Origin: Thermoproteota archaeon
Lineage (GTDB): Archaea; Thermoproteota; Thermoprotei; Gearchaeales; Gearchaeaceae
Length of the DNA: 64,000 bases
Assembly: GCA_021324265.1 (NCBI GenBank)
Contig: JAJPJK010000009.1
Span: 70,164-134,163 of the forward strand
Reading direction: 5' to 3'
The position numbers and the translations under genes were made by a program. Numbering within the stretch: the stretch's first letter is position 1; each line of letters opens with the position of its first letter. Positions 60,468-63,428 of the stretch are shown here, piece by piece. The notes beneath the pieces are model-generated. The model saw only the letters and a program-made list of their open reading frames with translations. It was not told the DNA's origin and ran no database searches.

Positions 60468-63428
60468 ATGGATAGGCGTTTTATTGAGTCTGTTAATTTT
60501 CCTTTTGGTGTGATTAGTGAGGCTTCTGCTGTTGAGAAGGGTCCTGGGAGGCCTCCCCATTGGGAGATGGTTTTTTGGTGGACTCGTAAGCCTTTGATTT
60601 CTGCTAGGGCTATTATTGCCGGTTGTTTGCTGCCTGAGAATACTAATGTAAATGAGTTTTTGTATAAGATTGGGATTAGGCGTAAGGATCGTAAAGCTGA
60701 TGGGCGGATTGTTTTTGAGCAGGCGCCTCATAGGGTTAAGCCTCTTTATCGTTTTGAGGGTGTTAGGCTTTTGGATCCTTTTGCCGGTTTTGGTTCTATT
60801 CCACTTGAGGGTTTGCGTCTCGGTCTGGATGTTACAGCTGTTGAGCTTTTGCCTGTGGCTTATGTTTTTTTGAAGGCTGTTTTGGAGTATCCGGCTAAGT
60901 ATGGCGAGAGGCTTGTTCGTGATGTGGAGCGCTGGGGGCGTTGGGTTACTGAGCGGTTAAAGGAGGATCCGCTTATTAGGGAGTTGTATGATGAGGATGT
61001 AGCAGTCTATATCGGTTCTTGGGAGGTTAAGTGTCCCCACTGTGGGCGTTGGACTCTGCTTGTTGGGAATTGGTGGCTTGCGAGGGTTAAGGCTGGCGAA
61101 GGCTACGAGAGGCTGGCTTGGATGGAACCCGTTGTAGAAGGTGATGAGGTTAAGATTAGAGTTGTGGATTTGAACAAGGTTTTGGGGAATAGAGCTGTTA
61201 AAGGCGCAAGGGTTTCTGGATTAAAGGTTGAAGCCGGTGGTAAGGAGTTTAGGGTTCCGGAAAGCAATATTGAGGCGCGGCGTGAAAAAGCCGTTTGTTT
61301 GTTCTGCCATCAGCCGATAATGCAGGTGGATCCGCAGACGGGGAGGCACTACACTGAGGCGAGGAGTTTGCCTAAAGAGGTTAAGGAGAGGCTAGAGGGC
61401 TACGTGAAACACGCCATAAAAACATACAACCAATGCCTAGAGCGAGAAGCCATAACGCCTCTTGCAAGACAAAGATTACTCGCCAAGGTGAAAGTGAAAG
61501 ACGGCGACTTAGAGTTCGAGCCATGCATAGAAAAAGACCAAGAAAAACTCGAACTAGCGAGAAAAGAAGTGGAAAAAATGCTCAGAGAAGGCGACCCAGA
61601 CATACCAAAAGAACCTGTCCCCATATATGAAGTTAGACGAATTACACCAATTCTTGGCGCTGATAAATGGTATAAGCTGTTTAATCCGCGCCAACTCTTA
61701 ACACTCGTCAAACTCGTCAAGCTGGTACGCGAAGCAGGCAAGAAAATCGAAGAAGAAAAACAAACTGAAGGATTAACTACCGAAGATGCACGCAAATACA
61801 CGGAGGCGATTGTAACTATGCTTGCTATATGTCTTGCAAACTACGAAAGACATAATGTGATAGTAACCTCAGTTGAACCAACTAGAAAGCTAGTTGCTCC
61901 TGCATTAGCTTCAAGGGGAATTGCAATGACGTGGAATTGGATAGAGGTGGACCCTAGTTTTGACATTATTGGCTCATGGGCTAAGTCTCTTGAACATACA
62001 ATTGAAGGTTTAGCATATTTCAATCTTTCATTGAAGAATCGCATAATGACGGTAAACATTATGTTAGATGATGCTACCCTATTGGGCAAGTTAAATGCTG
62101 AAGATAAGTTTGACCTAACAATAACTGACCCCCCTTATTACGATGACGTCCCCTATGCCGAGCTTAGCGACTTCTACTATGTTTGGCTTAAGAGGGCTCT
62201 AAGCGATGTTGAGGGCGGCAGGCTTATTCCACGTTTTCTGCCCGAAGCTTTCTATGAGAAAGTTGGAGATGAATGGGTTGAAGTTTCGACGCAATGGGAG
62301 AAATATGCCCTAAGCGAAGTAAGCCTTAATCCACTTAGGCTCGGCGCAGACGCGAAGTATGAGGTCGGCGTCAGGCATTTCCAGAATCTTCTTAACTCTT
62401 CGTTTATTACTATGGCTTCTAAGCTTAAGGATAATAGCTTACTGGTCACATATTATGCTCACACAGACCCTGATGCTTGGAAAGCCCTTTTAGAGGCTGG
62501 ATGGGAGGCAGCTGGCCTAATGGTCACAAATGCCTTCTCAATCACAACAGAATCAGCTCAAAGCGTAGTCAAAAGAGGAAAGCTCTCTATGGACACTAGT
62601 ATAGTTGTTGTTTGGCGGAAAGGCTGCCAAGGCTCAATTGAAGCCTCAGAACTATACAACCAAATGGTTGAAGAATCAGCCAAAAGAGCGAGAGAACTCA
62701 TGGATATTGGTGCAACAGGAAGAGACCTAGTTGTTGGAACGCTAGCAGCCTCTCTAGCAGTAGCCACAAAATACCGCGAAATAAAAGTCATAGGAAAAAT
62801 AGACACAAAAACGTTGGTCGACAATTACGTTTACCCAGCAACTTATCTGGGCTTAGCAAAAGCTCTAGCAATAAAAGCCGAACTTAAAGAAGGCGTCAAA
62901 TACTCAGACGCCATGTTCTACCTCCTAGTGAAATCCATACTACCAGGAGCAAAGAAAAAAACCTTAGAGAGCACAGATCTAAGGCTATTCTCAATAGGCA
63001 CATCCCTAGACCTCAACACAGCAATCAAAACATGGAAAATCTTGAAGGGCGAAGCGGAAACAGGCGCCAAAGTTGCAAAAGCCAAAACATACACCCTAAT
63101 AGAACCGCCTTCAACAGAACGCTCAAGCCTCGCAGAAATCCTAGAAATAAGAGGCATAAACCCAGAAAACCCCAACATAAGATGCACAGTAGACGCCCTC
63201 CACACCCTAGAATATTACGCAATAACCTTTTCAAGAGTAGATTTCAAACGCAAACTCGAACAACTCAAAAACGACTTTCCCGTACACATAGAAGAAGCCC
63301 TAACCCTAGCAAAAATCTTAGCAAAAACCATACCAAAAGAAGATCCGGAATGGGCATTATGCAAACGCATATTAGACTACTTATCACCAGAACAAAAACT
63401 TCTATTTCCAGAAAAAGGTGAACAATAA
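60468..63428 (+). CDS. N6-adenine DNA methyltransferase with DUF1156-type N-terminal domain
   Basis: Motif I is 'LLDPFAGFGSIPLEG'. Motif IV is 'LTITDPPYYDDVPY'. Size is 986 aa. The gene sits in a GC-richer segment whose codon usage is foreign to the rest of the window. Confidence 0.7.
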   Translation: MDRRFIESVNFPFGVISEASAVEKGPGRPPHWEMVFWWTRKPLISARAIIAGCLLPENTNVNEFLYKIGIRRKDRKADGRIVFEQAPHRVKPLYRFEGVRLLDPFAGFGSIPLEGLRLGLDVTAVELLPVAYVFLKAVLEYPAKYGERLVRDVERWGRWVTERLKEDPLIRELYDEDVAVYIGSWEVKCPHCGRWTLLVGNWWLARVKAGEGYERLAWMEPVVEGDEVKIRVVDLNKVLGNRAVKGARVSGLKVEAGGKEFRVPESNIEARREKAVCLFCHQPIMQVDPQTGRHYTEARSLPKEVKERLEGYVKHAIKTYNQCLEREAITPLARQRLLAKVKVKDGDLEFEPCIEKDQEKLELARKEVEKMLREGDPDIPKEPVPIYEVRRITPILGADKWYKLFNPRQLLTLVKLVKLVREAGKKIEEEKQTEGLTTEDARKYTEAIVTMLAICLANYERHNVIVTSVEPTRKLVAPALASRGIAMTWNWIEVDPSFDIIGSWAKSLEHTIEGLAYFNLSLKNRIMTVNIMLDDATLLGKLNAEDKFDLTITDPPYYDDVPYAELSDFYYVWLKRALSDVEGGRLIPRFLPEAFYEKVGDEWVEVSTQWEKYALSEVSLNPLRLGADAKYEVGVRHFQNLLNSSFITMASKLKDNSLLVTYYAHTDPDAWKALLEAGWEAAGLMVTNAFSITTESAQSVVKRGKLSMDTSIVVVWRKGCQGSIEASELYNQMVEESAKRARELMDIGATGRDLVVGTLAASLAVATKYREIKVIGKIDTKTLVDNYVYPATYLGLAKALAIKAELKEGVKYSDAMFYLLVKSILPGAKKKTLESTDLRLFSIGTSLDLNTAIKTWKILKGEAETGAKVAKAKTYTLIEPPSTERSSLAEILEIRGINPENPNIRCTVDALHTLEYYAITFSRVDFKRKLEQLKNDFPVHIEEALTLAKILAKTIPKEDPEWALCKRILDYLSPEQKLLFPEKGEQ

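Follow-up and report, generated by a model that had tools for sequence, protein, structure and literature searches.

Adjoining strand-composition domains of opposite sign in a predicted BREX-related defence cassette

The right-hand end of a 64,000-nt stretch of contig JAJPJK010000009.1 (hereafter the window) carries the beginning of a cassette that is, judged by its gene content, a type-1 BREX-related (bacteriophage exclusion-related) defence system, also called Hma. Its first gene encodes a DUF1156 N6-adenine DNA methyltransferase (hereafter the methylase) in one uninterrupted open reading frame (ORF) of 986 aa, and the start of the next gene, for a DUF499 AAA+ ATPase, overlaps the methylase stop by 1 nt (Table 1). 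A first-pass annotation, made from the sequence alone, reported that third codon positions switch within the methylase ORF from T/G to A/C, and this switch proved to be real. It is how two adjoining domains of DNA-strand composition show up within coding sequence; we label these domains by the class of bases in excess on the plus strand as K (G/T) or M (A/C). A locus with a K domain on the 5' side and an M domain on the 3' side is written K/M, and an unskewed side is written '-'.

Table 1. Features of the locus (positions in the window, or on the longer contig L001 where so marked)
Feature	Position	Strand	Basis or remarks
Region of the archaeal 23S-16S rRNA operon and RNase P RNA	24085..29408	-	
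RNase P RNA, archaeal	29102..29408	-	
tRNA-Val (GAC)	59412..59486	-	Rfam 59413-59486; ARAGORN on L001 8945-9019
K domain	60000..61406	.	Plus strand G+T-rich, skew +0.25 to +0.41
Zinc-ribbon pseudogene	60189..60287	-	blastn, alignment, translations, tblastn across loci
Non-coding spacer between divergent genes	60288..60467	.	Plus strand G+T-rich; sequence, skew
DUF1156 N6-adenine DNA methyltransferase (HmaB / BR-MTase)	60468..63428	+	PADLOC, Pfam
Short A+C-rich patch	61406..61640	.	Codons ~311-390, z -3 to -4
Compositionally normal middle, node between domains	61641..62500	.	z ~0
Hypervariable codons 451-550	61818..62117	+	30-47% identity to otherwise close relatives
M domain	62500..64000, on beyond window	.	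Plus strand A+C-rich, skew to -0.39
DUF499 AAA+ ATPase gene, 5' part (HmaC, BrxC-like)	63428..64000	+	1122 aa in L001
143-aa ORF	L001 16326..16757	+	
Snf2 helicase gene	L001 16771..19731		Outside window
MBL-fold protein, 420 aa	L001 19734..20996	+	
A+C-rich patch, 300 nt	L001 21450..21750 (window-equivalent 71917..72217)	.	Skew to -0.29
tRNA-Ala	L001 21784..21856	-	

Two strand-composition domains within one operon

Read in frame, ~97% of third positions are G or T in methylase codons 1-180, a share that falls to ~67% by codon 300, in keeping with the first-pass description of the first ~310 codons as T/G-ending. The turn to A/C third positions at ~61395-61406 is abrupt, and the cumulative walk of G+T minus A+C has its maximum at 61406. 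A/C-ending codons had been reported for everything from ~61400 on. This holds for a short patch at 61406-61640 and again from ~62830 to the methylase stop, where 85-95% of codons end in A/C and from where the trend carries on into the DUF499 ORF; it does not hold for codons ~390-690 (61640-62520), whose third positions are mixed. The order along the DNA is a K domain, a short M patch, a normal middle (the node) and a long M domain.

These values lie far outside those of the surrounding DNA. Raw skew, (G+T)-(A+C) in 300-nt windows, has a mean of 0.00 in the background at 1-59500 (sd 0.063, range -0.19 to +0.17), and runs from +0.25 to +0.41 across 60000-61300 and from -0.28 to -0.39 across 62800-64000. 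Third-position skew is -0.02 +/- 0.06 in 41 host ORFs (range -0.13 to +0.12), +0.77 in methylase codons 1-240 and -0.65 in codons 700-986 taken together with DUF499. Third positions in the K domain are A.05 and C.06, and the M domain is complementary (A.51, C.31, G.09, T.08). When 40-codon windows were conditioned on the amino-acid sequence and on host codon usage, 692 host windows behaved as a unit normal (sd 1.0, z from -3.5 to +2.85), and the methylase reached z +6.3 in its G/T-ending part (codons 1-180) and -5.7 in its A/C-ending part (codons 880-986). The profile is graded: z is ~0 in codons 381-660 and goes from 0 to +/-6 across 0.5-0.7 kb on both sides of the node.

The domains have edges that do not follow the methylase ORF. 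The K domain begins ~450 nt 5' of the methylase ATG, inside non-coding DNA, and takes in a minus-strand pseudogene, the spacer that holds a putative promoter, and the methylase gene as far as codon ~310. The M domain takes in DUF499 completely and ends at ~67.0 kb (window coordinates; L001 ~16450-16600), with z at -4 to -6 up to DUF499 codon ~750 and weaker values in the C-terminal part of that gene; in the helicase gene z is near 0. The bias is limited to ~60.0-67.0 kb, the 59.5 kb of flanking host DNA never exceeding |0.19|, and the skewed unit is lopsided about its node, with 1.4 kb on one side and ~4.5 kb on the other. The patch at 61406-61640 is common to the related loci L003, L034, L073, L004 and L054. 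A Lys/Glu-rich composition was considered as the whole cause of this patch and explains it only in part, since z is still -3 to -4 given the amino acids.

The same DNA was recovered in other assemblies. A megahit contig from ENA (L001) is identical to the window over a 13,533-nt overlap and reaches 9 kb further, and a JGI contig (L040) differs from the window by 0 mismatches and one indel over 6.4 kb. All junctions are crossed by identical sequence in both contigs, the exact methylase protein is also found in a third-party annotation (TPA) metagenome-assembled genome (MAG) and in SRR5579875 (an SRA-derived set), and relatives at 70-83% protein identity show the same domain layout. An assembly chimera, one of the explanations put forward in the first-pass annotation, is ruled out by the same DNA in at least three assemblies and by the layout shared among relatives. 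The abruptness of the change was all that had raised suspicion of an artefact of assembly, sequencing or damage; we found no support for one, the reading frame is intact and homologues from many samples share the layout, so that such an origin is vanishingly improbable.

Extreme strand bias seems to mislead gene callers. The NCBI TPA annotation gives the same gene as a 768-aa 'hypothetical protein' (HLI45882.1) that is 218 codons shorter than the 986-aa ORF; the omitted part, 60468-61121, lies in the G+T-rich domain and includes the DUF1156 match. The JGI annotation cuts the methylase into 279 + 706 aa, owing to the one indel. The antisense ORFs that had been listed at 61400-61801, 62918-63205 and 63265-63660 are present at exactly those coordinates, and one minus frame has 1 stop only within the first 720 nt of the methylase gene. 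Such long antisense ORFs are an effect of composition, because each stop codon requires both T and A.

The bias follows the DNA strand and not the coding strand. The spacer and the zinc-ribbon pseudogene, which is divergent from the methylase and has an A+C-rich coding strand, are both G+T-rich on the plus strand, as is the 5' part of the methylase. K skew over the spacer and both divergent genes therefore speaks against codon selection as well as against simple effects of sense transcription. The amino-acid composition and the first two codon positions also move in the direction of the bias: the protein encoded by the K domain favours arginine over lysine and valine over isoleucine and is raised in glycine and tryptophan, and lysine, isoleucine and threonine are raised in the part encoded by the M domain. 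We counted first- and second-position differences in replaced codons between L001 and L070, a locus in the opposite state. Differences with G/T in the window and A/C in the relative stand to the reverse as 111:23 in the 5' domain, 36:87 in the 3' domain and 46:40 in the middle, and V/I and R/K lead among the replacement pairs.

Among the synonymous differences that alter the class, C/T and A/G predominate. Counts are C>T 39, A>G 12, C>G 1 and A>T 4 against L002, and G>A 36, T>C 33, G>C 7 and T>A 17 against L108 in the M domain. Measured against the host baseline, change of the A>G type equals that of the C>T type in strength. Because non-coding DNA, an opposite-strand gene and amino-acid replacements all follow the bias, we conclude that it is directional mutation pressure and not codon choice. 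An earlier suggestion that mutation rather than translation is at work is likewise borne out. We are highly confident that the mutation pressure is real, inherited and strand-wise; that it is of the single-stranded DNA type appears probable, with appreciable room for doubt.

Recurrence among relatives and history of the methylase gene

Methylase homologues number in the hundreds at 65-83% identity and occur in MAGs labelled as many thermophilic archaeal lineages. We fetched 111 loci as a sample of these relatives (L numbers), and strong K or M patches recur among them. With a skewed window defined by |skew| >= 0.25, the share of skewed windows is 9% in the methylase gene, 9% in the DUF499 gene and 0.4% in the helicase gene; upstream of the methylase it is 9% within 0.5 kb and ~1% beyond 4 kb. 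The bias is family-wide in the modification module (zinc-ribbon gene, methylase, DUF499 and small ORF) and is not a property of the helicase gene. No skew patches were seen in four plasmid-borne bacterial cassettes (including those of Thermus and of a hot-spring Fervidibacter), and no copies of the module were found on viral contigs.

Both polarities occur. The close relatives L003, L033, L035/36, L041, L047 and L081 are K/M like the window; L070, L087/89/93, L054/L005 and L058 are its mirror image, M/K; Thermoproteales are -/K; and L074 alone has skew of the same sign in both halves. Third-position skews of codons 1-300 and of codons 700-986 are anticorrelated among 75 non-redundant homologues (Spearman -0.72, p 4e-13). 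The correlation is unaltered with an index that cancels G+C content at third positions (GC3), and host GC3 variation was rejected as its source for this reason. At the level of 35 clusters, Spearman is -0.56 (p 4e-4) and 6 of the 7 strongly skewed clusters are opposite in sign. A positional map places -300 to +900 nt in one domain and +2100 to +6600 nt in the other, with +900 to +1800 nt uncorrelated with either, and this uncorrelated node contains the hypervariable codons 451-550. The first-pass annotation had missed that the bias reaches non-coding DNA and an opposite-strand gene, that it is family-wide and that it is antisymmetric.

Two loci carry patches elsewhere. In L108, an A+C-rich patch at 1500-3136 (third-position skew -0.46) lies 7 kb away from the cassette and takes in the C-terminal end of a P-type cation ATPase gene together with an adjacent ORF, so that defence genes are not strictly the only place where such domains occur. 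In L064, the plus strand is G+T-rich for nearly 4 kb (1-3900) upstream of an unbiased methylase, over four minus-strand ORFs with A+C-rich coding strands, one of them with DUF7669.

Segment-wise identities show the methylase gene to be a mosaic produced by recombination, with codons 301-400 nearest to L073/L004/L005/L054. Codons 451-550 show 30-47% identity to relatives with 80-100% identity in the rest of the gene, L033 alone being close (60-74%), and codons 451-500 match the Thermococcaceae loci L007/L077 at 70%. These codons are hypervariable and located as the target-recognition domain is in the MANTIS methylase, which makes it probable that they form that domain here, and their divergence is consistent with its swapping. 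The idea of a chimeric or recombinant gene therefore stands as far as the mosaic goes: nearest homologues do differ from segment to segment. No such break falls at the 61406 turn against L003, L034, L073 and L054, whose DNA stays 80-90% identical across it, each with the same local switch. The turn is thus inherited with the segment and is no recent junction; L033 and L035 alone show a breakpoint there (codons ~305-330).

The bias appears to be old. Lineage-specific changes within the K domain of L034 and L002 number 19 for K>M and 0-1 for M>K, from which it follows that the bias is ancestral to the clade and is eroding in some members. It is also cumulative and inherited, because synonymous sites are saturated, the protein is conserved and relatives at 70-83% identity share the pattern.

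The cassette, its island and its host

The methylase matches Pfam DUF1156 (6.1e-10, above cutoff) and the PADLOC models MTase_II (3.8e-268) and HmaB (1.2e-49). The ATPase matches Pfam DUF499 (7.8e-249) and PADLOC HmaC (1.5e-51), and the helicase, which lies on L001, has SNF2-rel_dom, ResIII, Helicase_C and NOV_C matches and hits PADLOC HmaA (1.2e-54). The gene order on L001 is methylase, DUF499 AAA+ ATPase, 143-aa ORF, Snf2 helicase with NOV_C and MBL-fold protein. The C-terminal domain of the helicase is predicted to be nuclease-type.

According to passages of a survey of BREX-related systems, Hma is now named the type-1 DUF499-centred BREX-related system (PMC12839542). Passages of a preprint (bioRxiv 10.64898/2026.09.23.753747) place the target-recognition domain of the MANTIS methylase at aa 444-527 and describe MANTIS as hemimethylating asymmetric 6-bp sites and restricting DNA with inverted site pairs; one known site of BR/MANTIS-type systems, CAACAC, is pure A/C. 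Like Hma/MANTIS as described in these passages, the present cassette has a DUF1156 methylase, a DUF499 ATPase and an Snf2 helicase with a nuclease-type domain in the same order, with the probable recognition domain in the same place. Unlike the known systems, the archaeal clade adds a small zinc-ribbon gene and an MBL-fold gene. The 143-aa ORF between DUF499 and the helicase is without a family match and occupies the position of the MANTIS small co-regulator; together with the MBL-fold ORF after the helicase it is conserved in most of the clade's archaeal cassettes, besides the three core genes.

The zinc-ribbon protein (62 aa) is intact in L035 (MAKCPKCKTENPNPTKTWKYGNF...), and the window copy has a stop at codon 7 and has lost its 3' part. 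The protein (MAKCPKCKTENPNPTKTWKYGNFKVKAYTCKNCQTQFREYFDKNGKHSFTLKLEKGKGYIKA) is conserved just 5' of the methylase in many relatives, usually in divergent orientation, with intact copies at L035 4214-4399 (-), L057 315-500 (-), L033 1152-1337 (-) and L054 833-1018 (+). Its Pfam zinc-ribbon hits are sub-threshold only. It may be a regulator of the cassette; a word search for 'zinc ribbon' and 'Zn-ribbon' in the searched text of the BREX-related survey (PMC12839542) returned nothing. The spacer contains a TATA-like AAAGGCTTATATGA at ~60395-60408, partly kept in aligned L034 and L035, which is a putative methylase promoter. Alignment of the upstream regions of close relatives gave no conserved non-coding element beyond the zinc-ribbon gene and ~100 nt near this promoter.

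The cassette lies in an island bounded by tRNA-Val and tRNA-Ala. The tRNA-Val gene forms the left edge, and the cumulative walk has a local minimum right after it, at 59496. At the right edge of the island, the A+C-rich patch sits in a ~0.8-kb ORF-free stretch adjoining tRNA-Ala, which may be the decayed end of an integrated element. A search for att-type repeats (attL/attR) of the flanking tRNAs gave matches of 11-12 nt only, and no ORF was found where an integrase remnant was sought next to tRNA-Ala. The best candidate for terminal inverted repeats of the skewed unit (L001 9775-9804 / 16317-16346, 30 nt, 87%) was rejected, because by a by-hand estimate chance gives such pairs between G/T-only and A/C-only sequence and because the pair lies inside coding sequence.

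The host is probably a thermophilic archaeon. The rRNA operon in the window is 56-59% G+C (~58%), compared with ~35% in the surrounding DNA, and has the RNase P RNA and a tRNA immediately beside it. High G+C content of rRNA genes in a genome of low G+C content is a hint of a thermophile, and our reading of the host as thermophilic is based on this contrast. The MAG with HLI45882.1, HLI45885.1 and HLI45887.1 is labelled 'Geobacterales bacterium' despite an archaeal rRNA operon, RNase P RNA and archaeosine tRNA-guanine transglycosylase (TgtA), and is probably mis-binned or mislabelled.

Possible origins of the domains

We infer that the loss of C and A on one strand may be the signature of prolonged single-strandedness. 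In single-stranded DNA, C would be converted to U and A to hypoxanthine, changes that high temperature would amplify strongly. A and C are depleted on the plus strand from ~60.0 to 61.4 kb and on the minus strand from ~62.5 kb through DUF499, and these would be the strands exposed. The antisymmetric arrangement around the recognition domain points to a process that has its centre in this domain and acts on both sides, and our best guess at its root cause would be recurrent recombinational replacement of this domain. Gap repair of a break would leave 3' tails of the plus strand on the left and of the minus strand on the right, giving K/M. Ends-out integration of a resected incoming fragment would expose the opposite strands and give M/K, and also M/- and -/K, which are both observed. 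At every replacement, donor DNA would reset the centre. Cytosine in single-stranded DNA deaminates at ~1e-7 per second at ~90 C, and by a rough calculation, which speaks for feasibility, even 1e-4 of the time spent single-stranded would at that rate exceed ordinary mutation rates. We hold the whole of this explanation (strand domains, a single-stranded DNA signature and recombinational recognition-domain replacement) tentatively, as the best of those considered; that recombination tails in particular are the cause is possible, though doubtful.

Several points weigh against this explanation. The cause is read from geometry, and strand breaks, intermediates and single-stranded DNA are all postulated. 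A saturation of 97% G/T would need very many events, or long exposure together with purifying selection. Bias is lowest beside the node and highest 1-3 kb off, which fits recombinational replacement only if conversion tracts keep resetting the centre. In several lineages the M domain tends to stop at the boundary from DUF499 or the small ORF to the helicase, and such a stop resembles a module or site boundary more than a distance effect. Independent origins of polarity are few, ~7-14 clusters. The K/M state of the window fits the polarity of 3' tails, the M/K lineages need a different route, and the node is neutral over a width of 0.9 kb. Change of the A>G type is as strong as that of the C>T type, whereas pure hydrolytic chemistry favours C>T; at four-fold sites C>T is far above C>G, A>G is about equal to A>T and T>C to T>A, and since these sites are saturated the A>G test is weak. 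Resynthesis of one strand by a G.T-mispairing polymerase would yield the same letters with the opposite polarity, and for that reason the sign cannot be assigned to one route. Polarisation of substitutions by parsimony, limited by few A/C sites and uncertain rooting, was uninformative about an ongoing gain of bias in the lineage of the window, which is possibly the outgroup of its clade.

Two other explanations would import the bias from elsewhere. In one of them, recombination would have joined alleles from replicons, or replication strands, of strong and opposite bias into a chimeric gene, for example by an inversion between inverted paralogues. The family does recombine heavily, the nearest relative varies by segment, L033 and L035 break at codons ~305-330, and an inversion between oppositely oriented copies, of which MAGs with two copies exist (JARVJX01 with L003 and L011; WYEN01 with L012 and L016), would yield reciprocal K/M and M/K genes. 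This origin, which the first-pass annotation had named first in the form of homologues from oppositely biased replicons, should have left K/K or M/M parental genes, yet these are almost absent (L074 alone). Nor is a source of the bias seen in host genes, in distant flanks (~1% skewed), on viral contigs, which have no copy, or in the four plasmid-borne bacterial cassettes, which are unskewed. No breakpoint against L003, L034, L073 and L054 coincides with the 61406 turn, and K-type alleles differ from M-type alleles at nearly every third base, which should make homologous recombination between them very inefficient; we regard such a chimera as distinctly unlikely. Alternatively, the domains could be a relic of an extrachromosomal past of the module, in which inward end-primed linear replication would give K/M and outward theta replication from a central origin M/K, the bias eroding since integration. 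The geometry resembles end-primed and origin-centred skews, as in adenovirus and phi29-type genomes with their end-primed replication asymmetries; the bias looks ancestral and is eroding in some lineages; the island lies between two tRNA genes with a degenerate A+C-rich stretch by tRNA-Ala; and the K domain has a fairly sharp left edge. The module, however, lacks genes for a polymerase, Rep or a terminal protein as well as a significant terminal inverted repeat, its node is off the midpoint (1.4 kb vs ~4.5 kb), no free or viral copy was found and the helicase gene of the same cassette is unskewed, all of which makes an episomal relic improbable.

The remaining explanations invoke processes acting in place. 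Transcription-associated mutagenesis or R-loops, in which the non-template strand is the single-stranded one, would give K/M if sense transcription from upstream converged with strong antisense transcription from downstream of DUF499, and M/K if divergent internal promoters were at work. The geometry is compatible, a G+T excess on the coding strand of mammalian transcribed regions is a precedent that Green et al. reportedly described in 2003, and a G-rich non-template strand would favour R-loops, so that the state could reinforce itself. Against this, the K domain covers a divergent gene whose coding strand is A+C-rich and starts ~400 nt upstream of the putative methylase promoter, and none of the 41 host ORFs has such a bias. 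T5+ runs, which resemble archaeal terminators, fill the K-rich strand (8 on the plus strand of the K domain and 53 on the minus strand of the M domain), and long transcripts in the needed direction are unlikely because of them; the promoters needed are hypothetical, and we consider a transcriptional origin very unlikely. Selection on the nucleic acid could favour a two-letter strand without palindromes and with motifs in one orientation, evading Type III, ISP or MANTIS-like restriction, or an unfoldable mRNA. The effect is linked to the cassette, and the hemimethylation of asymmetric sites by BR/MANTIS, the restriction of inverted pairs and the pure A/C site CAACAC in the preprint passages cited above would suit such selection. 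Non-coding DNA and the pseudogene are, however, just as skewed, and amino-acid sequences change with them. Where K and M domains adjoin, inverted pairs would be created and not avoided, and a search of the A+C-rich domain for an array of recognition motifs gave no hexamer above z 3.3 when compared with synonymous shuffles. Neither the helicase gene nor the bacterial cassettes show the bias, and per-site selection coefficients would be tiny. Selection of this kind is highly improbable.

Asymmetries between strands due to single-strandedness are known from other systems. The heavy strand of vertebrate mitochondrial DNA undergoes C>T and A>G change while single-stranded during strand-displacement replication, and the composition of the light strand resembles that of M-domain third positions. 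As there, the two strands are G+T-rich and A+C-rich respectively, the asymmetry being strongest at synonymous sites and reaching into amino-acid composition. Unlike there, the domains here measure 1.4 kb and ~4.5 kb within an otherwise unbiased chromosome, the sign flips inside one gene and both polarities occur. Replication skews of bacterial chromosomes, adenovirus and phi29 share the antisymmetric change of sign, M/K being origin-like and K/M terminus-like or end-primed-like; they are replichore- or genome-wide and far weaker at third positions, whereas the host DNA flanking the present domains is neutral. Tracts of single-stranded DNA mutation at breaks that switch polarity are reported and provide a precedent (PMC6786661, PMC3521656). 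Break clusters of yeast and cancer (kataegis-type, 5'-3' resection) are likewise kilobase tracts with one strand hit and a central switch of polarity, and the K/M polarity of the window is that expected from 3' tails flanking a break. Unlike the present domains, which are saturated and cumulative and in which A>G is about equal to C>T, those clusters are single events of few to tens of mutations, usually driven by enzymes or chemicals. The passages searched in the papers on type-1 BREX-related systems and MANTIS make no mention of strand or codon bias, and we found no prior description of such antisymmetric domains in the literature searched. What appears to be new is a saturated, antisymmetric pair of kilobase-scale domains in a chromosomal defence operon, in both polarities.

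A broader possibility, which we put forward as speculative and rather unlikely, is a locus-specific, strand-asymmetric hypermutation in thermophilic archaea that is anchored on the BREX-related modification module and is a counterpart of kataegis on an evolutionary scale. It would be driven either by turnover of the recognition domain or by DNA-handling proteins of the cassette itself, the ORC/Cdc6-clade DUF499 ATPase and the methylase, acting in cis. One strand would be exposed on each side, the evolution of the defence genes would be accelerated and directed, and the K/M or M/K state would record the route by which each lineage acquired its specificity.

In practical terms, gene callers fail on such domains, which also give rise to long false ORFs in several frames and can be mistaken for mis-assemblies or foreign DNA. 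If the single-stranded DNA explanation is true, single-stranded exposure of one strand can become the main determinant of the local mutation spectrum where it is hot, rewriting nearly every synonymous site and many amino acids over several kb while the rest of the chromosome is unbiased. The domains would then be a footprint, legible from sequence, of where and on which strand DNA lies exposed in uncultured archaea. That footprint would be tied to the specificity-swapping region of a widespread defence system, which would make the diversification of its genes testable from sequence.

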